A stretch of DNA of 64,000 nt from Eggerthellaceae bacterium (GTDB lineage Bacteria > Actinomycetota > Coriobacteriia > Coriobacteriales > Eggerthellaceae), in the NCBI GenBank assembly GCA_040774885.1, contig JAXGTO010000002.1, positions 39,328 through 103,327 of the forward strand, given 5' to 3'. Of this stretch, positions 800 through 64,000 are shown in pieces (position 1 is the stretch's first letter; the number at the start of each line of letters is the position of its first letter). The notes under the pieces were generated by a model. The model saw nothing but the letters and a program-made list of their open reading frames with translations, did not search any database and was not told where the DNA came from. A program made the translations under genes and the position numbers.

Positions 800-1010
800 T
801 CCGATTCGCAACGAAACGTGCACTTCGCACATGGAATTCGAGATATTGTGGCCTTTTCAGAGAACCGATTGCCCTCCTTCGCCCTCTTTGATCGCATAAC
901 CCCAGTTCACAAAAACAAACGCAGGTAACCTGACGCGTTCGGCCCCACAGTATCCCGAATTCCAAGCAAATTTGGGCATTTTTCTGACGAATACGCTCTC
1001 TTGCCCTGTA
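800..1010 (+). repeat. Imperfect-palindrome intergenic element, copy E0 of 4
   Basis: Left box GGAATTCGAGATATTGTGGCC (833-853) pairs with right box GGCCCCACAGTATCCCGAATTCC (941-963). The central motif CCCCAGTTCA is at 900-909. The offsets GAATTC->motif (66 nt) and GAATTC->GAATTC (123 nt) are the same as in E1-E3. Confidence 0.75.
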
Positions 1011-14097: not shown

Positions 14098-14261
14098 CAT
14101 TCCCCCACTCCTGCTTCCAATTGGCAGCGTCACCTTGCAGCAATATGGCGTTCCCGTTTCACCCCATTGCACCTGCAAACTCATGGAGCACCGATTCTTC
14201 GGAGCAACACGGCATCCCGTTTCACTCCTTCGCATCGCACTAGGGGCGTTTTGCTTTTCTG

Positions 14262-14450
14262 AGATCACCAAAACGGCCTTTTCTGCAAAGAATTTGCGAT
14301 ACGGTACGCCTTCGACCCACGATTCAACGTCAAAAATGCGAACCTGTCGACAAAACCCCAGTTCAGCAAGATTCAATTCAGCAATAACTCCAAGAATGGA
14401 GTACCGTACCGCAAATTCTTTGCAGAAAACGGCGAATTTGCGTTCTCGGA
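14262..14450 (+). repeat. Imperfect-palindrome intergenic element, copy E1 of 4
   Basis: CTGCAAAGAATTTGCGATACGGTAC (14283-14307) versus GTACCGTACCGCAAATTCTTTGCAG (14401-14425) gives a 24/25 inverted repeat. CCCCAGTTCA is at 14356-14365. The flanks are homologous to E0/E2/E3. The element ends 3 nt from the asd stop. Confidence 0.8.
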
Positions 14451-19382: not shown

Positions 19383-20156
19383 ATGCTCGAAGTCGTCCTC
19401 ACCATACCGTTCTGGTTTGAAATGGTGGCTACCGTCACCGGTGCCATATCCGGCGCCATGAGCGCCTCACGTGCGAAATTCGACATCATCGGCGCTATGG
19501 CCATCGCAACGCTGGTCGGCTTGTTCGGCGGCGTGATGCGCGATGTGATGCTGCAAAATTACGGAATCTACGCCTTCCAAAAGCCCGAGCTCATCGTGGC
19601 CTGCGTCATCGCAGCCATCGTGGTGTTCTACTTCGGACGCCTGGTGAACTACCTCGACCCGGTAGTCGACCTCATCGATTCGCTGTCCGTGGGCTTGTGG
19701 GGCATCATCAGCGTGGGCAAAGCGCTTTCGGCCGGCGTGGGAATCGTTCCGGCCGTTGTGCTGGGCATCGTCACCGCCGTCGGCGGAGGCATCGTGCGCG
19801 ATGTCATCATGAACAAACCGGTTGCGGTATTCCAGGCCGGCACGCTCTATGGCGGAGCAGCGGTCATCGGCTGCATCGTGTTCGCGTTGATGAAGACCAA
19901 CCACATATTCGATGCATGGAGCTCGTACGCCTGCGTGGCGCTGGTGGTGCTGCTGCGTTATTTGAGCCTCTGGTTCGGTTGGCGGACCAAGCCGAGTCGC
20001 GATCTGACCGGCGATGTGGTCGATGCCGTGGCAAAGCCCGTCCGTGCGATAACCGGACGCCGCCCTCCCGCCCGCGTGCTGGATGAAGAGGAAAAGACCA
20101 AGAAGAAGATCTCGCAGCGCACGTTCAACAAGAAGCGCGACAAGAAGAAGAAATAG
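19383..20156 (+). CDS. TRIC / UPF0126 (YadS-like) cation-channel family membrane protein
   Basis: Two UPF0126 repeats (GAISGAMSA...GLFGGVMRDV and TAVGGGIVRDV), seven hydrophobic segments and a Lys-rich tail. Confidence 0.8.
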   Translation: MLEVVLTIPFWFEMVATVTGAISGAMSASRAKFDIIGAMAIATLVGLFGGVMRDVMLQNYGIYAFQKPELIVACVIAAIVVFYFGRLVNYLDPVVDLIDSLSVGLWGIISVGKALSAGVGIVPAVVLGIVTAVGGGIVRDVIMNKPVAVFQAGTLYGGAAVIGCIVFALMKTNHIFDAWSSYACVALVVLLRYLSLWFGWRTKPSRDLTGDVVDAVAKPVRAITGRRPPARVLDEEEKTKKKISQRTFNKKRDKKKK

Positions 20157-20161
20157 CCTCT

Positions 20162-20791
20162 CTAGGCGTTTTTCAAGATGATGGTTCCCATAAGATCGGC
20201 CACATGCTCGCATGCATCGGTGCATTCTTCCATCTTGGTGAAGATGCGCGACCACACCAGCACGCGCATGGGATTGTCCATATCGACCGTATGGAGGTTG
20301 CGCACCAGCTTGAGGTAGAGCTGGTCGGCTTCTTCTTCCAATGAATTCACGTTGACGATGGCGTCTTTGAAAGCCGTCGACTTCTTGAAGTTGACGAATT
20401 CGTCCATGGCCCCGCACAACGCCTCGGCCTCGCGTTTGATGATGTCGGCCAGCTGATGGGCGTCTTTGTGCATGAAATGGATATCCATCATGTAGAACAG
20501 TTGGATGATGTCTTCCATCTCATCGATGATCTCATCGAGGGCCTGCGAAAGCGACAGGATGTCATCGCGGTCGATGGGAGTGATGAAGTCGGTGGACATG
20601 GCGGTGAACGTATCGTGGTTGATGACGTCGCCGCTGTGCTCGAGCTCATGGGCTTCGGGCAAGCGCGCGGCCATCGCCTCGGCCGTGGTGAAGTTCTCGA
20701 TGACGTCGATGAGCAGATCGGCTTCTTGGCAGGCGATCTGCGTCTGATGCTTGAACGCCTTGAAGTAGTCGTATTTGGTCTTGCGGGGCAT
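20162..20791 (-). CDS. DUF47 (PhoU-like, YkaA-type) phosphate transport regulator
   Basis: Four-helix PhoU-like repeats. It lies immediately downstream of the PiT transporter, which is the usual pairing. Confidence 0.85.
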   Translation of the reverse strand: MPRKTKYDYFKAFKHQTQIACQEADLLIDVIENFTTAEAMAARLPEAHELEHSGDVINHDTFTAMSTDFITPIDRDDILSLSQALDEIIDEMEDIIQLFYMMDIHFMHKDAHQLADIIKREAEALCGAMDEFVNFKKSTAFKDAIVNVNSLEEEADQLYLKLVRNLHTVDMDNPMRVLVWSRIFTKMEECTDACEHVADLMGTIILKNA

Positions 20792-20800
20792 CGATTCTCC

Positions 20801-21871
20801 TTAGAACAGCATCAAGAACAGTTTAGCGAACACAAATCCCATCAGGCCGCATCCCGGGAACGTGAGCACCCAGGTTTTGACCATGTCGATGGCAACGCTC
20901 CATTTGACCGCGCTGCGGCATTTGGCGCGGCCCACGCCCATGATGGCCGTGGTGTTGGTGTGGGTGGATGAAACGGGAAGGCCGCCGAATGTGGATATCA
21001 CCAAGCAGATAGTGGAAGAAAGCGAGGCCGCAAAGCCTTGATAGCGCTCGAGTTTCACCATATCCATGCCGACGTTCTTGATGATGCGAGTACCGCCGGA
21101 AGCCGTGCCGATGCCCATGTTGAGGGCGCAGAAGATCATCAGCCATATCGGCAGTTGCAGCTGGCCCGCATCGCCCGATCCGATGGCCAGCGTAACGGCC
21201 AGCATGAAGATGGACATGAACTTCTGACCATCCTGCGCGCCATGCATGAAAGCCGCGCCGGCACCGGTGAATATCTGGCCGATCTTGAAGAAATGATCGG
21301 CCTTGGAGCGGTCGAAGCCCGAACAGAACCGTGCCAAAAGTTTTGCGAACAACCACCCGAATCCAAAGCCCATGAATGTAGAGAGCAAGATGCCGTAGAC
21401 GACCTTCATCCATTCCGCGCCGTTGACGCCGGCGAGCCCGCCTTGCAAGGCGATGGCGGCTCCCGTAAGACCGGCGATGAGCGAATGGGACTGGCTGGTG
21501 GGAATGCCGAACCACCAAGCCACGGCTCCCCAAACGATGATGGCCACCATGGCGGCAAGCAGTGCGATAAGTGCCGCATGGCTGTCTCCGCCGAAGTCGA
21601 CCATGTTGTAGATGGTGTTGGCGACAGCCGAAGAAACCAACGTGACGATGAGCAACCCCAAGAAATTGCAAACGGCGGCCATGAGAATGGCGGGGCCGGG
21701 CCGCATGCTGCGCGTTCCCACCAGCGTGGCGATGGCATTGGGGGCGTCGGTAGCGCCGTTGACGATGATGACGCCGACATTGAGAAGGGTCACTGCCACC
21801 AAGGCAGGATTCGACATCAATTCGGCAACGAACGTGGACAGCTCGATGGTCACGAAACGCCTTTCACCCAT
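20801..21871 (-). CDS. pit: Inorganic phosphate transporter, PiT family
   Basis: NGATDAPNAIAT and FMHGAQDGQK signatures in a polytopic protein. The start is uncertain: the GTG at 21853 has GAAAGG upstream. Confidence 0.9.
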   Translation of the reverse strand: MGERRFVTIELSTFVAELMSNPALVAVTLLNVGVIIVNGATDAPNAIATLVGTRSMRPGPAILMAAVCNFLGLLIVTLVSSAVANTIYNMVDFGGDSHAALIALLAAMVAIIVWGAVAWWFGIPTSQSHSLIAGLTGAAIALQGGLAGVNGAEWMKVVYGILLSTFMGFGFGWLFAKLLARFCSGFDRSKADHFFKIGQIFTGAGAAFMHGAQDGQKFMSIFMLAVTLAIGSGDAGQLQLPIWLMIFCALNMGIGTASGGTRIIKNVGMDMVKLERYQGFAASLSSTICLVISTFGGLPVSSTHTNTTAIMGVGRAKCRSAVKWSVAIDMVKTWVLTFPGCGLMGFVFAKLFLMLF

Positions 21872-22739: not shown

Positions 22740-25169
22740 TCAGTGCTCGCCGGGCATCATGCGATGGGCGTCGAACACGCCCTCGATACCCTTGAGCTTG
22801 CCGATGATCTTGTCGATGGCAGAGACTTCGCTTACTTGAAACAAGAAGCGCATCTCCACCATGTTGTCGCGATGCGAGGTGGTGCTGGAAGAAAGCACGT
22901 TTGCTCCGGCTTCGGCCAGCACGATGGCCACATCGCGCAGAAGATTCATTCGGTCGAGCGCCTCGATGAGAATCTCGACCTTGTAAGAAATGTCGTTGTT
23001 GGGAGCGTTTTCCCATCGCACGTCTATGATGCGCTCGGGATGCGCCATCAAGCTGGCGGCATTGGGGCAGTCGGCCCGATGAACCGAAACGCCCCTGCCC
23101 CGCGTCACGAAACCGACGATGTCATCTCCGGGTACGGGATTGCAGCAGCGAGACAGGCGGACGAGAACGTCATCGATGCCTTTGACCACCACGCCGTTGC
23201 TCGCATGGACTTCACGTTTCTTCGGTTCCTTCACCGAGGTGATCATCGGAGGCATCATGCCGGTCATCATGGTGGCCGACTTCGATGTCGACGCTTCTTC
23301 ATGTTCGCCCGATCCACCATCGAGTATCTTGATCAAACGGTTTGCGACATGCTGGGTGCTTTCCTTGTTCGTTCCGATGTTCACCAGCATGTCGTCTGAA
23401 TCGCGGTATCCCATCTGCTCGGCCGCCTGCTTCATGGCACGCATGCCGCGAGCATTCGCGATCCCCAACCCGTGCTTGCGCATCTCGGTCGAAAGCTTCT
23501 CGCGTCCGGTTTCCAGATCATCGCCGCGCGTCACCCTGCTGAAATACGAACGGATCTTGCTGCGCGCGCTGGGGGTCTTCACCATTTTGAGCCAGTCGCG
23601 ACTGGGGCCGGCGCTTTTCTGGGTGAGGATATCGACGCGATCGCCCACCTGAAGCTCGTAGGACAAGGGAACGATGGAGCCATTGACCTTGGCGCCGACG
23701 CAATGGTTGCCGACCTCGGTATGGATGGCATAGGCGAAATCGACCGGCGTGGATCCGGAACGCAAGCTCATGACCTCGCCTTTGGGCGTGAACACGAACA
23801 CTTCAGAAGGGGCAAGATCGACTTTGAGCGACTTGAGAAACTCGCGCGAATCCTGCGTTTCGTCCTGCCAGTCGACCATTTGGCGAAGCCAGGCCAGCTG
23901 CTGGTCGAAGCTGGCATCGCCTTTAGCGCCCTTTTCCTTGTAGCGCCAATGGGCGGCCACGCCGTATTCGCTCATGCGGTGCATTTCCTCGGTTCGGATC
24001 TGAACTTCAAGCGGGCGTCCGGCCGGCCCGATCACCGTGGTGTGCAGGCTTTGGTACATGTTGAATTTCGGCATGGCGATATAGTCTTTGAAACGCCCGG
24101 GCATCGGGTGCCACAGGCTATGGACGGCGCCCAATGCCGAGTAGCAATCCTTCACCGAGTCCACGATGATGCGAACGGCGATGAGGTCGTATATCTCGGA
24201 GAACCCCTTGCCGCGATTGGTCATCTTCTGGTAAATGGAATACAGATGCTTGGGACGTCCCATGATCTGCGCATCGATGCCCAGCTTGTCCATTTCGCCA
24301 TGGAGGATGTCGATGGTCTTTTCCAGATACTCCTCGCGCTCGCCGCGACTCTCGGCCACCATGCGCGATACCTGCTTGAACTTGGCGGGCTCCAGATAGA
24401 AAAACGAGAGATCCTCGAGTTCCCATTTGATGGAGCTGATGCCCAGACGATGCGCAATGGGCGCGTATATCTCAAGGGTCTCGCGCGCCTTGAAGATGCG
24501 GCGGTCTTCCTTGAGCGCCGAAAGCGTGCGCATGTTGTGCAGGCGGTCGGCAAGCTTGATCACGATGACGCGGATGTCCTTGCTCATAGCGACGAACATC
24601 TTGCGAATGGTCTGCGCCTGTTCGTCGGAAAGGCTCTCCACCTCGATGCGCGTGATTTTGGTGACGCCGTCGACCAGTTGGGCGACGCTGTCGTTGAACG
24701 TTTCGCGCACCTGATCGAGCGTGACGCTCGAATCTTCAACCGTATCGTGCAACAGGGCGGCGGTAAGCGTTTCGGCATCCATCTTCAAATCCGCCAGGAT
24801 GAGCGCGACCTCAACCGGATGGGCGATGAACGGCTCCCCGCTTTTGCGGCATTGGCCTTCATGGGCATCGCGGGCGAACAAGAACGCCCGCTCGATCATG
24901 TCCTCGTCTTCATCGCTGAGATAGGCGGATGTGACCCTTTGCAGTTCGGCGAACCGCTCTTCGGGCGTGGCACGTGCCACCACCTTGCCGGGGTCAGCCG
25001 TGGCAGCGGGCGTGGTAAAGCTCATCTCGGCAGCATGCGGCCGGCCGATGAGCTCATCGGATCCATCGCTGAAACGGCTCGATCCACCGATCGTCTCGGC
25101 AGCCTGACCCAGCATCTCATCATCGGCCGTTGCGGGCCGCGCCGTGCTTTCGTCGGTCTTGTCGCTCAT
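22740..25169 (-). CDS. relA: Bifunctional (p)ppGpp synthetase/hydrolase
   Basis: HD domain (HPVEVA...HDTVED), synthetase domain (YQSLHTTV, EVQIRT), TGS and ACT domains. The ATG overlaps the stop of the upstream gene (ATGA), with an AAGGAGAGGGGG RBS. Confidence 0.95.
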   Translation of the reverse strand: MSDKTDESTARPATADDEMLGQAAETIGGSSRFSDGSDELIGRPHAAEMSFTTPAATADPGKVVARATPEERFAELQRVTSAYLSDEDEDMIERAFLFARDAHEGQCRKSGEPFIAHPVEVALILADLKMDAETLTAALLHDTVEDSSVTLDQVRETFNDSVAQLVDGVTKITRIEVESLSDEQAQTIRKMFVAMSKDIRVIVIKLADRLHNMRTLSALKEDRRIFKARETLEIYAPIAHRLGISSIKWELEDLSFFYLEPAKFKQVSRMVAESRGEREEYLEKTIDILHGEMDKLGIDAQIMGRPKHLYSIYQKMTNRGKGFSEIYDLIAVRIIVDSVKDCYSALGAVHSLWHPMPGRFKDYIAMPKFNMYQSLHTTVIGPAGRPLEVQIRTEEMHRMSEYGVAAHWRYKEKGAKGDASFDQQLAWLRQMVDWQDETQDSREFLKSLKVDLAPSEVFVFTPKGEVMSLRSGSTPVDFAYAIHTEVGNHCVGAKVNGSIVPLSYELQVGDRVDILTQKSAGPSRDWLKMVKTPSARSKIRSYFSRVTRGDDLETGREKLSTEMRKHGLGIANARGMRAMKQAAEQMGYRDSDDMLVNIGTNKESTQHVANRLIKILDGGSGEHEEASTSKSATMMTGMMPPMITSVKEPKKREVHASNGVVVKGIDDVLVRLSRCCNPVPGDDIVGFVTRGRGVSVHRADCPNAASLMAHPERIIDVRWENAPNNDISYKVEILIEALDRMNLLRDVAIVLAEAGANVLSSSTTSHRDNMVEMRFLFQVSEVSAIDKIIGKLKGIEGVFDAHRMMPGEH

Positions 25170-28100
25170 CGATCCCCCTCTCCTTGCGCCGGCGGGCATT
25201 CGTCGGTGGGAAGGATGGGCCGGGAAACACGGCGGCGCAATTCCTCGGCATCGCCGGAAAGGACCCATTGCCTGAATGCGCGGAATATCTCGATCTCGTC
25301 TTGTCCTTCGCGATAGCGCACGCTGTCGGTAAGTTCGACTTTGGGAGGATCGTCGTTGACGTGGATGGTGCGCGCAGCACCGTCTTCACCTGGAGCATTC
25401 GAACGCGTCTCGATGAGCCCCAACTCACGGAACACCGACACCGCGCATGCGGCGCTGGCGGGCTTGATCGGATGTTTGGGCTCAGCCTCGGAACACGACC
25501 GGGCCAAATCGGCGTTGGAAATGCACAGAGGCTCATTGGATCCGCTGCGCTGCAAATCACGTAGGCGGCGGTATACCTGGGCCATCGCATCATGGCTGGG
25601 AGTGGCGTCTTGCAAAATGCCCTCGTTGATGCGGGCATCGTCGGCCCCGAACAGCAGATGCACCTGCGCGGGCAAACCATCCCTTCCCACGCGGCCGCTC
25701 ATCTGGTTGAACTCAACCTCGTTGAATGGCAAATGATAGAGGACCACATGGCGGATGTTGGGGATGTCCACCCCCTCGCCGAAGGCGGACGTGGCAACCA
25801 GCACGCGCAGATCGTCTGCACGGAACAGTTCTTCGATGCGCGTGCGCTCCACACGGGCCAGCCCCGCATTGTAAAAGCCCACCATCGAAGCCATTTGGGG
25901 CACCTGTTTGCGAAGAGCACGCGCCAAAGACACCGATTGCTGACGGGAGTTCACGTAGATGACGGTTTTTTCACCCGTCGCAACCAAATTGGCGAGATAG
26001 GTTTCACGGCGGCGCGAATTGCGTTGGTCGTCGATGCTCAAATTGGGACGAGAGGTATCGTCGCAGATGCGCTCGACGATTCCGAGAGCCTCGCAGACGT
26101 CATCGGCCACTTCTGCAGAAGCCGTGGCGGTAAGGGCGAGGACCTTCCGGGGAGCCAGCCGCTCCACCGCTTGGGAAATGCGCGCATACGCCGTGCGGTT
26201 GCCGGCCTTGGCCAGCCCGATATGGTGGGCCTCATCCACCACCATGAAATCGATGTTGCCCGATTGGGCGAATTCATCGGCATGGAAGCTCAGGAACTCA
26301 GGCGTGGTGAGCACGATGTCGACCCCACCTTCGGCGATGCGCGCGAAAACACTGCGTCGCTGGTCAGGGGTCGATTCGCCCGTGAGCACTTCGCTCACGA
26401 CGCCGAATGGCGAAAGGGCGCGGTCCAGATGATAGGCTTGATCGGCGATGAGGGCGCGCAGCGGATAGACGAACAGGCTGACGCCGCCACCCGCGAGGGC
26501 ACGGCACGCCGCATGCACTTGGAAAGTGAGCGACTTGCCCCGTCCCGTGGCCATGACCGCCAACACCGAACGATCGGAACCGAGTGCATCGAGAACACGG
26601 CGCTGGGAATCGAACAGGGTCCCCTCTTCGCCGATGCATGCGGCAATGACGGCATCCTGCAATCCAGCAGGGTCTTCTGCAGCGCGTTTTTCCCAGCACG
26701 CGCGGTTTTTCTCGCACTCACGTTCGTCGCGCGCGATATCGGAAGCGCACTCAGAGCAGTCGGCGCACAACTCGGCGTCGCTGGCCGCATACAGATCGGA
26801 AACGAAGTTCACGTTGTCCGGCTGCAAGCACGCCTCCAAAGCGGCGCAAGGCGTGGCGGGAGCAAGCTGGCTGAGCATGGCCTTGACCGAACGACGTCCG
26901 CGATATTCATCTATCTGCACTTCGAATGCAGCATCGACCACGCTATCGCATTGCATGAGCGATGCAATGTCGGAACAATGGAACATGATGCCCGCAACCT
27001 GGGCGCGGCCATCGGTCAGCTGGCAGGAGAGGTGGTTTTTATCTGCCCCCACGGCCCGGCAGCGACCCAAGATGACATTGCGCGCCAAGAAGCGCGGAGG
27101 ACGATTCTCCTGGCCGAAGGGTGCCATCTGCTGCAACGCCTCGACGTTGGACATCGTGAGCTCTTCCAAACGAACGCAGGCATCGATTTCAACACGCGGA
27201 TGGAAACACTCTTCCGGCAAACCGTCCATGTAAGAGCACAGACGCTCGGTGAATTCGGGCAGACGGTCAGCAGGCAAGGTGACGCCTACGGCGGCCTCGT
27301 GTCCGCCGAAGCGGGTCAGCAGATCAGCGCAGCTTTCAACGGCCCGGAAAAGATTCACGTTGCCAACGCTGCGTCCGCTGCCACGCGCCTCGCCGTTCTC
27401 GTCGATAGTGAACAAAAGCGCAGGAACGCCGTACGTGCGCACCAGTCGGCTGGCCACGATGCCTTTGACGCCTTCGTGCCACCCTTCGCCCGACACCACC
27501 AATGCGCGCTGGCCGTGATAGGCTTCTTCGGCCTGCAAGCTGGCGATCTCAGCGAGTTCGGCCTCGATGGCGCGCCGTTGGCAATTGACTTCTTCCAAAC
27601 GGGCGGCCAGGCGACAGGCTTCGTCATAGTCGTCGCACATCAGCAGATCGAGCGCCAATTGCGCATCGCCCATGCGTCCCGCTGCATTCAGGCGAGGAAT
27701 GAGGGAAAAGCTCAGCGATGAGGCCTCGACGGGTTTGTCGGCTGCTCCGGCCTGTTGCAGCAGGGCTGCCAGACAGGGACGCGGGCTCTCGTTCATGCGC
27801 GCCACGCCATCTGCCACCAGCGCGCGATTGCCCGCCCGCATGGGCATGAGGTCGGCCACGGTGCCCAGCGTGGCCAAGTCGGTGTACTCGCGCCACAGGT
27901 GCGGCTTGCCGAATCGAGCGCCCAACGCCTGAACCACCTTGCATGCCACGCCCACGCCCGCAAGGATGGAACTGGGAGATTTGCTATCGAGCTTGGGGTC
28001 GCATACCGGCACGGATTCAGGCACCAGATCGGCCGGCTCGTGATGGTCGGTGATGACGACTTCGACCCCATGGTGCTGCAATGTCTTGACTTCGTTTTTG

Positions 28101-52444: not shown

Positions 52445-60411
<7,967 letters not shown>

Positions 60412-60466
60412 GGGGCATTTCCTCCTTCAAGAAAATCCGGAAAACTGCGAAAAGTCGCAAGTTCTT

Positions 60467-60495
60467 AAAATACGCGCGGAATATTCCCGAGTCAA
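60467..60495 (-). promoter_or_regulatory. Sigma-70-like promoter for rpoBC (TTGACT-17-TATTTT)
   Basis: On the minus strand the sequence reads TTGACTcgggaatattccgcgcgTATTTT, about 55 nt upstream of the rpoB GTG. Confidence 0.55.
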
Positions 60496-60551
60496 GGAAA
60501 ATTTTTACCAATTATGCAATTCGTATGTTTATCTGGGGAAACAGATGGAGC

Positions 60552-60790
60552 TCTGCAACCCTCGCGCAACAACAAGATTGGCGTTCGTCACGATTTCGGC
60601 CTTTAACGCAGCGAATTCGGGATAGTGTGGCGATTTGACCGACTTTCGAAGCCGGAAGCATCGACACCGCGAGCATCGTCCCAGTTCACGCAGCGACCAG
60701 AAAGACAGCTTTCTTGTTCCGAGCCACATTATCCCAGATTCGATGCGAAAACCGCCGTTTAAATGACAAATGGCTCGGATTTGAGATCGT
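60552..60790 (+). repeat. Imperfect-palindrome intergenic element, copy E2 of 4
   Basis: Left arm CGCAGCGAATTCGGGATAGTGTGGC (60607-60631) versus right arm GCCACATTATCCCAGATTCGATGCG (60723-60747) pairs at 21/25. TCCCAGTTCA is at 60679-60688. The left flank TTCGTCACGATTTCGGCCT is identical to E3. Confidence 0.8.
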
Positions 60791-61149
60791 TGAGCTGGAT
60801 TCAAGGCAAAAGGGTCAGACCTGGGAAGGAATCGGTCGAGAGTGCCAAACGACAACGGATAAGCCTCTCCAACCAAACCAGTCTTCACGGCATCCAACGG
60901 CCAATCTTCATCGAGGAAATCAGATGCCTATCGGCACCGAGCTGCAGCCCGATACCGGCATCTCATCACTCCAATCGAATTTCCTGCAGCGTTACCCTGC
61001 CGACATCGTCCGCAGCACCATCGTTCACAACCTCCATTGCAAAATGAGCAAGCCGTGAACGGACGCTGCAAGATTACGGCAAGAATCCCGAAAACGTAAT
61101 GCAAGACAATTGCAAAACGAGTGAATGCCCTACGCCGTACCATCATCGC

Positions 61150-62112
61150 ATGATTGCACTCAGCCATATATCCGCCGTCGAATTCTGGCGCTCGCCTACA
61201 GCAAAGACGCTCGAGGGTCAACGAATGCGCCCCTCAAAGGCTGCATGGGGAGACCCTCCCAGCACAAGAGCGCTTGCCGGCATAACGGCTGCTTGGCCGA
61301 ATGGCATCAACCGCCCGTTCAACATTATCGTTAACGATGCTTCATCTCGCAGGGATACCGCATGCGCAATAACGCACCTATGGTCGCTGCCAATTCCTAA
61401 CGGCTCGTTAATTGCTCAGGACGGTTATCTCGTTTCGTCGCCGGAATTCACGTTTGTTCAGATGGGAAACATCTTTTCACTTCCGCAGCTTATTGCGCTG
61501 GGTATGGAATTTGCGGGTGGATACCGACTGCGACCGCAAACCGAAGAGGGATTCGAAAAACGGCAACCGCTAACGACTGCAACGAAACTGCGTGCTTTCG
61601 TCGATTCCACTCGCGGCTCGCATGGCCGCACAAAGGCGCTTCGCGCCTGTGCCTATCTTATGGAGGGGTCCGCTTCACCCAGAGAAACGGCTCTCGCTCT
61701 ATTCTTGACATTGCCCTATCTGCTCGGAGGCTACGGAATCGCCCGTCCACAACTCAATTCGAGAGTGAGGATGCCCACCCGCGCAGTCTGGAAACCAGAT
61801 AGAAATTACCGGTCATGTGATTTGACTTGGCCGGAATTCAACTTTTCGCTGGAATACGACAGTAACCGTTGGCATACCGGATCCGAGCGAATCAGCCGTG
61901 ATGCAAAACGCCAAGGAGAGCTTGGGCTTACGGGCATGGAAGTTATTCCGGTTTCAAACCAGCAAATCATGAATGCAACGGATATGGAAAAGATCGCTCT
62001 TCTTGCGGCGAAAAAGACCGGAAAGAGAATTCCGAAATCGGCTCTAGGCCCAACCCAAGCACGAGTCTATCTACGACGCGAGATATTCAAAATCGGACAT
62101 ACGGATATCTAG
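61150..62112 (+). CDS. Hypothetical protein with C-terminal DUF559 / Vsr-like PD-(D/E)xK endonuclease-like region
   Basis: CDLTWPEFNFSLEYDSNRWH...RDAKRQ resembles the D...ExD...K core of DUF559 proteins. The start is uncertain (the ORF-track ATG is at 61099) and no clear RBS is visible. The gene looks lower in GC than its neighbours by eye. Confidence 0.55.
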   Translation: MIALSHISAVEFWRSPTAKTLEGQRMRPSKAAWGDPPSTRALAGITAAWPNGINRPFNIIVNDASSRRDTACAITHLWSLPIPNGSLIAQDGYLVSSPEFTFVQMGNIFSLPQLIALGMEFAGGYRLRPQTEEGFEKRQPLTTATKLRAFVDSTRGSHGRTKALRACAYLMEGSASPRETALALFLTLPYLLGGYGIARPQLNSRVRMPTRAVWKPDRNYRSCDLTWPEFNFSLEYDSNRWHTGSERISRDAKRQGELGLTGMEVIPVSNQQIMNATDMEKIALLAAKKTGKRIPKSALGPTQARVYLRREIFKIGHTDI

Positions 62113-62126
62113 GAACTATGCCGACA

Positions 62127-62345
62127 TTTGCAACCAGCAAACCCGACATTCGTCACGATTTCGGCCTATCATGCAGCGAATTCGCGATAGTGAAGTGATT
62201 CGGACAGCATTAGATACTGACGAGGCCAACGCAACATGCATCACCCCAGGTCATACGCTATCAGAAAAAAATACCCACTCATTTGGAGCCACAATATCCC
62301 GAATTCGATGCAGAAACAGGCGTTTCAATGGCAAATGGGGCGAAT
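62127..62345 (+). repeat. Imperfect-palindrome intergenic element, copy E3 of 4
   Basis: Left box GCGAATTCGCGATAGTGAAGT (62176-62196), central CCCCAGGTCA (62244-62253) and right box GCCACAATATCCCGAATTCG (62288-62307). The spacing of 66 and 123 nt is the same as in the other copies. Confidence 0.8.
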
Positions 62346-62490
62346 CGGATCTAGCGCGACTGGCCAGGGCGAATGGGGCGAATTGGAGCTAGCGCAACCG
62401 GCTGAAACGAACGAGGCGAATTGGAGCTAGCGCAACCGGCTGAAACGAACGAGGCGAATCGGAGCTAGCGCAACCGGCCGGGACGAACGG
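62339..62490. repeat. Tandem repeat, 38-bp unit x4 (GGCGAATTGGAGCTAGCGCAACCGGCTGAAACGAACGA)
   Basis: Units start at 62339, 62377, 62415 and 62453. The two middle units are identical and the outer ones are diverged. The unit length is not a multiple of 3, and there is a TAG in every unit. Confidence 0.9.
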
Positions 62491-62610
62491 TGCGATCGAA
62501 ACCGCCCGCCCAATGATGCAGAGGCACATATCGATGTTGAGGCGTTTAAGCACAACCGGTCACGATACGAGCGACGAGCGGCGGCACGGAAATCAGTTGG
62601 CAGCAGATTC

Positions 62611-62670
62611 ATCCCTATGTCGATTGAGAATCAACCAAAAATCCCTATGTCGATTGAGAATCAACCAAAA
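62611..62670. repeat. Perfect 30-bp tandem duplication (ATCCCTATGTCGATTGAGAATCAACCAAAA x2)
   Basis: 62611-62640 is identical to 62641-62670. Confidence 0.95.
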
Positions 62671-62755
62671 CAAGGAGGGCGAACCCGCATGAGGGAGAGA
62701 ACGGAATCGCACCTCTGGCTGCAATCCGATTCGGACCGCCCCACCATTTCAAGGC

Positions 62756-62776
62756 GGGAGCGCGAAAAGCGCCCCC
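62756..62776 (-). terminator. Hairpin 3' of gatB (weak terminator candidate)
   Basis: On the minus strand: GGGGGCGC-TTTT-CGCGCTCCC, about 10 nt after the gatB stop. The U-tract is poor. Confidence 0.4.
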
Positions 62777-62786
62777 GTCCAAACGG

Positions 62787-64000
62787 CTAGCCGAGCTTTT
62801 GCGCCAAGAGCTGGTTGATGAGCTTGGGATTGCCCTGGCCCTTCGTTTCCTTCATGCATTGCCCCACGAAAAAGCCGATGAGGCCGGTCTTGCCGCCCTT
62901 GTACTGTTCGACCTTGTCGGGGTTGGCGGCCAAGACGGCGTCGATCACCGCTTCGAGCTCTCCGGTGTCGCTCACCTGCTTCATGCCGTGCTCTTCCACG
63001 ATGGCCGCAGGATCCTTGTCTTCGTCCATGATGGCGGCGAACACTTCCCTGCCCTGCTTGGAACTGATGGAATCATCGGCCAACAGGCCGACCAGCGCCA
63101 CCGCGCGCTCGGGTGTGAGCGGCGTGTCGTCCAGGTCGATGCCCTCGTTGGCGTTTAGATAGCCGGCCACGTCGTTGATGACCAGATTGGCCAACGGTTT
63201 GGCCAGATCCGCGGAAGCCGACCGCATGCACTGCTCGAAGAAATTGGCTGTGGCGCGATGCTCCACCAGATGTCGCGTATCGTAGGGCGTCAAGCCATAG
63301 TCGGCTTCGAAGCGGGCCGCTTTGGCATCGGGGAGTTCGGGGAGCTTGGCACGCACTCCTTCGATGAATTCATCGGACAAATCGTAGGGAGCCAGGTCGG
63401 GGTCGGGGAACATGCGGTAGTCGTCGGCGGTTTCTTTGACGCGCATGACGATGGTGCGCTTGGCAGACGGATCCCAATGGCGCGTTTCCTGATAGATGAT
63501 GCCGCCCTCTTCAAGAACTTCGGCTTGGCGGCATATCTCGTAAGCCAGGCCGTCATGCAGGTTCTTGAAGCTGTTGATGTTCTTGAGCTCGGTCTTGGTT
63601 CCCAGTTCTGTGGCGCCGCGGCGGCGCAGGCTGATATTGCCGTCGGCGCGCAGGCTGCCCTCTTCCATGCTGCAGTCGGAAATGCCCAGAGCCAGATAGA
63701 TCTGGCGGAGCTTCTGCATGAACATCCGCGCCTCTTCCGGCGTGCGGATATCGGGCTCGGTCACCAATTCCATCAGCGGCGTGCCGGCGCGGTTGTAATC
63801 GACCAGGCTGTGCGTGGCTCCGGCGATGCGGCCTTCCTCGCCGCCGATATGGATCATCTTGCCGGCATCTTCTTCCATATGGATGCGCGTGATGCCGATA
63901 TGCGCCGTATAGCCGTCCTGCGCATCGGAACCCAGGTCGACCCGTTCGCGGGCGCCGGCGCCGTCCACGTCCAAATCGAGATGGCCGCGCATGCAGAAGG
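62787..64000 (-). CDS. gatB: Asp/Glu-tRNA amidotransferase subunit B, 5' end beyond window
   Basis: ITRIHMEEDAGK, NRAGTPLMELVTEPD and the C-terminal GatB/YqeY domain (GFFVGQCMKETKGQGNPKLINQLL). The frame is open to base 64000. Confidence 0.93.
   Translation of the reverse strand, partial: FCMRGHLDLDVDGAGARERVDLGSDAQDGYTAHIGITRIHMEEDAGKMIHIGGEEGRIAGATHSLVDYNRAGTPLMELVTEPDIRTPEEARMFMQKLRQIYLALGISDCSMEEGSLRADGNISLRRRGATELGTKTELKNINSFKNLHDGLAYEICRQAEVLEEGGIIYQETRHWDPSAKRTIVMRVKETADDYRMFPDPDLAPYDLSDEFIEGVRAKLPELPDAKAARFEADYGLTPYDTRHLVEHRATANFFEQCMRSASADLAKPLANLVINDVAGYLNANEGIDLDDTPLTPERAVALVGLLADDSISSKQGREVFAAIMDEDKDPAAIVEEHGMKQVSDTGELEAVIDAVLAANPDKVEQYKGGKTGLIGFFVGQCMKETKGQGNPKLINQLLAQKLG

Follow-up and report, generated by a model that had tools for sequence, protein, structure and literature searches.

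Why does a gene that is oriented against both of its neighbours stand between two copies of a long palindromic element, directly upstream of rpoB? This question is raised by a 64,000-nt stretch of an Eggerthellaceae draft genome (2.02 Mb, 58.6% GC), which corresponds to C2:39328-103327 (contig C2) and is referred to below, in its entirety, as the window. The spacer between rpoB and gatB, both on the minus strand, is 2.37 kb long and contains two palindromic elements, E2 and E3, together with a single plus-strand open reading frame (ORF, 61099/61150-62112), in agreement with the first-pass annotation of the window. That annotation further proposed that the arrangement is a cassette, inserted by, or excisable through, recombination between the two elements. 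We tentatively favour another explanation, namely that the segment from 60.58 to 62.49 kb is one of six modules of this genome, each made of a nuclease-family gene and a private family of palindromic repeats, with a logic resembling that of REPIN/RAYT systems, i.e. doublets of REP (repetitive extragenic palindromic) sequences with REP-associated tyrosine transposases (PMC3116915, PMC3337134).

The layout found upstream of rpoB recurs within the genome, which carries six intact paralogues of the gene, 32-50% identical to each other. Every paralogue adjoins a palindrome of common geometry that belongs to a different sequence family, and four of the six (on contigs C2, C31, C10, and C34) are bracketed on both sides (Table 1). 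The six paralogues correspond to six repeat families or subfamilies, and all clusters of at least four members include a gene-adjacent copy. Seven (~0.6 expected) of the 98 inverted repeats of the same geometry detected genome-wide are located within 600 nt of the paralogues, that is, in 0.64% of the genome. The closest protein pairs also have repeats of like size: ~140 nt for C10/C31 (50% identical) and ~190 nt for C2/C34 (42% identical). In addition, a central ATAACCCCAGGTC core is common to the repeat families despite their unrelated arms. Among paralogues, the sequences that separate the upstream element from the gene show no similarity, and a conserved partner ORF upstream is therefore not supported.

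The association is also found in other genomes. Members of the gene family are present in 107 of 151 genomes of the same taxonomic family, with up to 14 copies per genome, and named relatives belong to Eggerthellaceae/Coriobacteriia, including Paraeggerthella, Raoultibacter, Gordonibacter, Adlercreutzia, Senegalimassilia, and Slackia. A model of the E-family arms of this genome had no match in the homologue loci of other genera; as the arms are lineage-specific, a geometry-based inverted-repeat finder was needed. Among 30 loci of other genera, 28 have a palindrome (arms of at least 24 nt) within ~400 nt of the gene, on both sides in eight loci and most frequently ending 4-50 nt ahead of the start codon. 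Another sample comprised 68 scorable named loci, 47 of which carry a palindrome no more than 300 nt from the gene (upstream in 30, downstream in 23). Overall, a palindrome is located near the gene in 75 of 98 outside loci, and palindromes number 1.15 per kb close to the gene versus 0.064 per kb beyond 700 nt from it, an ~18-fold difference in density. Although arms differ between lineages, the motif CCAGGTC is found in 31 of 120 loops (1.0 expected), and the centre of the CCWGG that it contains is offset from the dyad by 6 nt, on one side or the other. This central motif has no preferred orientation relative to the gene (11 versus 10 upstream), and the direct orientation of E2 and E3 therefore carries no special meaning. 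A separate observation concerns a ~150-nt repeat located ~250 nt downstream of a nuclease homologue in a Raoultibacter-like genus (L050:1608-1766 in genome G134): it is present in at least 20 copies per genome in three congeners, far above any family in the genome of the window.

A homologous unit is moreover present or absent between congeners. Genomes G145 and G108 share a ~1.45-kb unit consisting of tandem repeats, palindrome, and gene, in place of which their congener G057 has 124 nt, with flanks 83-89% identical to those of the occupied site. The unit was therefore gained or lost as a whole, and no lone element is left at this empty site. It is the one empty site found; two further searches, in the genera to which G012 and G005 belong, met with flanks of excessive divergence or with contigs that ended at repeats.

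Table 1. Features of the rpoB-gatB region (window coordinates) and the five other paralogues of the nuclease-family gene (contig coordinates)
Feature	Position	Strand	Description
rpoB	56866..60411	-	left neighbour of nuclease unit
rpoB leader	60412-60520	-	~108 nt directly 5' of rpoB start codon
E2	60582..60772	+	191 bp, upstream of ORF; left arm 60582-60633, right arm 60721-60772
E2-to-start spacer	60773..61149	+	377 nt, unique
Nuclease-family gene	61150..62112	+	320 amino acids from likely start M18; stop 62110-62112
E3	62147..62337	+	191 bp, starts 34 nt past ORF stop; left arm 62147-62198, right arm 62286-62337
Tandem array	62334..62490	+	four head-to-tail 38-bp units, starting inside E3 outer end
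gatB	62787..63992+	-	right neighbour, convergent with ORF
C31 paralogue	C31:20349-21287		elements 20100-20239 and 21557-21696; pair 91% identical, inverted, 1st of 78 pairs; family of 14 loci
C10 paralogue	C10:24762-25694		elements 24189-24321 and 25717-25849; pair 85% identical, inverted, 2nd of 55 pairs; family of 12 loci
C34 paralogue	C34:550-1509		elements 226-419 and 1609-1803; pair 64% identical, direct; family of 15 loci
C14 paralogue			single element just 3' of gene; family of 2 loci
C7 paralogue			single element just 3' of gene; family of 6 loci

The two elements of the window are direct repeats of 191 nt each, 1565 bp apart from start to start, as initially described, and share the 19-nt sequence TTCGTCACGATTTCGGCCT, which occurs nowhere else in the window (none of 100 shuffles gave two matches). 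They had been singled out as the most similar pair of their family. This holds among the four copies of the window (803-993, 14259-14449, and E2 and E3 themselves), but genome-wide they rank second of 153 pairs, behind C1:62397 and C24:12429 (83% identity). Compared in the same orientation, E2 and E3 have 72% identity, versus 55% with one of them flipped, and their longest exact common runs are 19 and 12 nt. Identity is concentrated in the arms (85% between left arms, 83% between right arms, 57% between centres). Within a copy, arm complementarity is 65% for E2 and 58% for E3, with fold z-scores of -2.8 and -0.9, respectively, the latter being no better than that of shuffled sequence. Because the arms are 83-85% identical between copies yet only 58-65% complementary within them, they have been retained as sequence and not as a hairpin stem, and E2 and E3 are thus sister copies that descend from an already asymmetric element. 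The central motif of E3 is CCAGGTC (from 62246), and that of E2 is the variant CCAGTTC (from 60681).

The outer end of E3 leads into a tandem array, each 38-bp unit of which repeats a sequence resembling the element terminus, GCGAAT(N)GG (GACGAATGG-like). The closest relative of E3, on contig C47, ends likewise in such an array, of 39 bp (C47:315-443), and a tandem array likewise precedes the palindrome in the G145 unit. Arrays are located within 60 nt of an element in 11 of 61 cases genome-wide, versus ~2% genome-wide, an excess which is perhaps only twofold once intergenic bias is allowed for.

The E family as a whole comprises 19-21 loci in the genome (nhmmer), and its arms are always found as convergent pairs. 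Conservation is limited to the ~52-bp arms (cATTCGTCACGAAA...GCAGCGAATTCGGGATAGTGTGGC) and to a core located off centre, CCCCAGGTC, the remainder being variable. Copy lengths are quantised, at 179/180 nt (five copies), 190/191 nt (11 copies), and 201/202 nt (two copies), with a step of about one helical turn, suggesting that phasing between the two arms is constrained. When all families are considered, ~60 lone repeats are present in the genome. They are full-length, outnumber gene-adjacent copies ~5:1, and have no gene fragments nearby according to a six-frame hmmsearch of the genome. Nine of the 16 scorable E-family copies lie between convergent genes. Another kind of repeat, a short GC-rich palindromic unit (GGGGCTGGGGATAAACCCCAGCC) spaced 50-125 nt, was noticed at C24:52-515 and C41:14246-14423. 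It has no relation to the nuclease-linked families and may represent a repeat array, CRISPR-like or of another type.

The gene between E2 and E3 is open from an ATG at 61099 (337 amino acids), but the likely start is the ATG at 61150, as homologues align from residue 18. Its 67 database matches are all at most 43% identical, and the window protein is the sole member of its own protein cluster. The first-pass annotation had judged the gene lower in GC by eye, and the computed composition bears this out: compared with 1246 proxy genes, its GC content is 52.9% (5.7th percentile), its GC content at third codon positions (GC3) is 52.2% (2.7th percentile), and its codon score falls at the 1.5th percentile, while rpoB and gatB lie at the 93rd-98th percentiles for GC3 and codon score.

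The C-terminus had been described as DUF559/Vsr-like, a link that becomes apparent only at the level of the family. A Pfam scan of the ORF yields no family at E<=0.01 (the best match is MTES_1575 REase, E=0.17, with 12.5 bits for a cut-off of 38.2), and an NCBIfam scan nothing significant. By contrast, DUF559 is matched by eight of 34 relatives (best 1.1e-5), and REase_MTES_1575 likewise by eight of 34. The residues that are invariant in the 34-sequence alignment lie in the C-terminal half, and all of them are present in the window protein: SASPRE at 191-196, D241, E252-Y253-D254, H259, and D268. The family profile matches the catalytic domain of the homing endonuclease I-Bth0305I (3r3p, E=0.004) and 3hrl (E=0.17), as well as PvuRts1I. 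An AlphaFold2 model with a predicted local distance difference test score (pLDDT) of 88 was matched by Foldseek to the I-Bth0305I catalytic domain with a probability of 0.94-0.96 and a target template-modelling (TM) score of 0.51-0.53, albeit with weak E-values. Profile and predicted structure thus support a Vsr/DUF559-type PD-(D/E)xK nuclease fold for the C-terminal domain. The N-terminal ~200 residues have no solved-structure match, and the most variable part of the protein is found there, with a mean pairwise identity of 22% for residues 18-110 versus 40% for residues 191-300.

Under the explanation that we tentatively favour, the protein would recognise its own repeat, with the variable N-terminal domain reading the family-specific arms of ~50 bp and the conserved nuclease domain acting on, or close to, the CCAGGTC core, which is off-centre and likewise conserved. 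As the resulting nicks or breaks are repaired, the repeat might be copied, or its copies kept alike, at intergenic sites that are mostly gene 3' ends. As the gene is located inside its own repeats, it would be gained, lost, or flipped together with them. We infer binding, cutting, and spreading from the arrangement of genes and repeats described above. The sequence context of Escherichia coli Vsr is CCWGG, which the repeat core contains, although this may be a coincidence. Generalized to the Coriobacteriia, the proposal would be that a Vsr/DUF559-like PD-(D/E)xK nuclease drives self-perpetuating repeat systems in these bacteria, its N-terminal domain reading the arms, the cut falling at CCAGGTC 6 nt off the dyad, and break repair copying or homogenizing the repeats, so that the REPIN/RAYT life-style would have been invented a second time, independently. 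We regard this broader claim as rather doubtful. Our literature searches retrieved no account in which a DUF559-type nuclease goes together with palindromic repeats.

Several observations weigh against a nuclease acting on its cognate repeats. The ends of 18 E-family copies show no consistent direct repeat that could represent a target-site duplication, and as these copies are only 55-83% identical, they are old and without sign of recent movement. We know of no case in which PD-(D/E)xK nucleases alone transpose DNA. E2 ends 377 nt before the ORF start, while upstream elements in other genomes mostly end 20-50 nt before it, and bracketing on both sides was detected in only six of the 68 named outside loci at the threshold used. 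Finally, in a comparison that involves too few genomes, with differing GC contents, to tell whether the repeats depend on the gene, the gene-less genome G074 has six inverted repeats in 423 kb, versus nine in 400 kb in its congener G151, which carries six genes; G041, which has no gene copy, has two in 400 kb, and G073, which has 12, has 34 in 400 kb.

The likeness to REPIN/RAYT systems concerns organization. In both cases, a single-copy gene is located between copies of its own palindromic repeat, which is scattered in the genome; there is one repeat family per paralogue, with many lone intergenic copies; repeats consist of two inverted arms around a spacer; and gene and repeats are old, long-lived, and not recently spread. 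On the other hand, the gene described here encodes a Vsr/DUF559-like PD-(D/E)xK nuclease with a novel N-terminal domain in place of an HUH/Y1 transposase of the IS200/IS605 type. Neither Y1_Tnp nor any other known transposase domain was detected in Pfam and NCBIfam scans of the ORF and its relatives. The elements are also much longer (130-200 bp, with arms of 25-55 bp and loops of 50-110 nt), they have a conserved off-centre CCAGGTC core, and a genome may carry up to 14 paralogues. As the defining HUH/Y1 transposase is absent, the module is not a member of the REPIN/RAYT family.

Two other groups of known systems show partial resemblance. With the Vsr/DUF559/I-Bth0305I clade (PF03852, PF04480; PDB 1cw0, 3hrl, 3r3p; PMC3424549), the window protein shares the C-terminal D...E-Y-D...H...D pattern, matches to 3r3p and 3hrl that are weak in both profile and fold, and a restriction-endonuclease-like core fold with acidic residues, for which E-values are weak. 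However, it falls below all Pfam thresholds, including the gathering score of DUF559/Vsr families, and has an N-terminal domain of ~200 residues; its gene is not located within an intron or intein, and nothing points to a role in mismatch repair. The repeats, for their part, resemble MITEs (miniature inverted-repeat transposable elements) and composite transposons in being short, non-coding, intergenic elements with inverted terminal arms, and in having a gene between two copies. They differ from these in the lack of target-site duplications and of a transposase of known family, in a conservation limited to the arms and a 7-nt core with an interior free to vary, and in their low identity.

Among the alternatives, it is conceivable, though unlikely, that the gene is a homing-type selfish element. 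A free-standing homing endonuclease would cut older, independent repeats, and double-strand-break repair from an occupied locus would place the gene beside or between repeat copies, the repeats being mere landing pads. The one-to-one correspondence between repeat families and paralogues, with no multi-copy family lacking a gene, is unexpected for repeats that pre-existed independently. In favour of homing, the gene-less G074 still has similar palindromes. Homing would account for the closest solved fold being that of a homing endonuclease catalytic domain, for the atypical GC and codon usage of the gene, and for the unit being an indel between congeners, but the empty site of G057 has no lone repeat. 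Palindromic arms would also permit repair either way, which fits flanks that are direct at C2 and C34 but inverted at C31 and C10, whereas the fact that each paralogue is single-copy and so divergent from the others implies no recent gene spread within the genome.

It is improbable that the palindromes are simply cis-acting parts for expression or switching, such as 5' or 3' hairpins, looping operators, or inversion sites used by a recombinase from another locus, with lone copies as by-products and no enzyme-substrate relation. Such a role would fit the upstream elements of other genomes, which typically stop 20-50 nt before the start codon, but not E2, which is 377 nt away, nor E3, given its fold z-score of -0.9. 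The lengths of 180, 191, and 202 nt, which differ in steps of about one helical turn, suggest phased protein binding. Proteins annotated as "DUF559 domain-containing protein" are 14-fold enriched among predicted programmed-inversion targets (PMC9881135), which likewise speaks for this possibility, as do the inverted flanks at C31 and C10. E2 and E3, however, are direct and thus cannot form an inversion switch. The lone copies also speak against such a role: they outnumber gene-adjacent ones (~5:1), are full-length, are mostly located between convergent genes, and have no gene remnants nearby.

The surroundings of the unit have been rearranged. In eight other genera, a YacP/NYN-like gene and then rlmB are found upstream of rpoB, with neither gatB nor rplJL there, so that the rplJ-rplL pair that the first-pass annotation had expected at this position is not the arrangement of related genera; no nuclease homologue is present within 6 kb of the rpoB upstream region in these eight genera. 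In the genome of the window, the YacP/NYN-like gene and rlmB are located at the junction of contigs C46 and C13 (C46:9313-9842, C13:1-1256). They are thus found elsewhere in the genome, and the adjacency of gatB and rpoB, found only in this genome among those searched, marks a rearrangement. When the DNA of the region is compared with other genera, matching is confined to the rpoB leader, for which identity is 74-90% in 10 or more other genera. As this conserved leader reaches ~60520, the left limit of the nuclease unit lies between 60520 and 60582. A promoter-like TTGACT-17-TATTTT sequence is present at 60495-60467, upstream of rpoB, and an Rfam scan of 60300-62900 at E<=1, leader included, gave no match. 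Two further features of the spacer were noticed. A 44-amino-acid ORF at 60924-61058, upstream of the nuclease gene, belongs to a spacer that is unmatched at the other five paralogues and is probably not a gene. At 62611-62670, in the gatB-proximal part, a perfect 30-bp tandem duplication (ATCCCTATGTCGATTGAGAATCAACCAAAA x2) has no visible link to the palindromic elements.

The cassette proposal can now be considered in the form in which the gene product plays no part, i.e. a passive segment inserted into, or excisable from, the rpoB-gatB spacer by RecA-type recombination. The part of the proposal that stands is the reality of the repeat-gene-repeat unit, which is found at three other paralogues with different repeat families and in other genera, and the presence or absence of a homologous unit between congeners. 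The proposed mechanism fares less well. E2 and E3 are direct sister copies with common derived arm asymmetries, on either side of a compositionally foreign gene and at a gene adjacency unique to this genome among those searched, all of which speaks for a passive cassette. Yet they are not long, near-identical direct repeats: an identity of 72% and a longest exact run of 19 nt are well below the needs of efficient RecA recombination (minimal processing segments), and present-day excision or insertion by homologous recombination between them is thus unlikely on the basis of their sequences. In addition, flanking copies are inverted at two other paralogues of the same gene family (C31 and C10), where recombination would invert the segment instead of excising it, so that excision cannot explain those layouts. 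Most outside loci have one element only, and the single element that excision would leave behind is missing at the only empty site seen. We therefore consider a passive cassette to be an improbable explanation for this locus. Finally, although the region is a synteny break with a 2.4-kb, non-coding-rich spacer tolerant of insertions, our initial reading that two MITE-like repeats and an unrelated accessory gene had come together there by chance was rejected and is effectively refuted, as the layout is repeated at each of the six paralogues as well as in other genera (75 of 98 outside loci, with the ~18-fold local enrichment).

If the enzyme does not act on the repeats, the association reported here still explains such genes as predicted inversion targets. 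Few uncharacterised bacterial genes are as common as those of DUF559-type nucleases, and the long intergenic palindromes of gut Actinomycetota are without assigned function; their pairing, through variable arms and a conserved CCAGGTC core, gives nuclease and repeat each an experimentally testable partner. If the enzyme does act on the repeats, the two together would constitute a new class of enzyme and repeat system shaping genome architecture, one unit of which is located directly upstream of the rpoBC promoter, and programmable nucleases that bind DNA sequence-specifically could possibly be drawn from this class.

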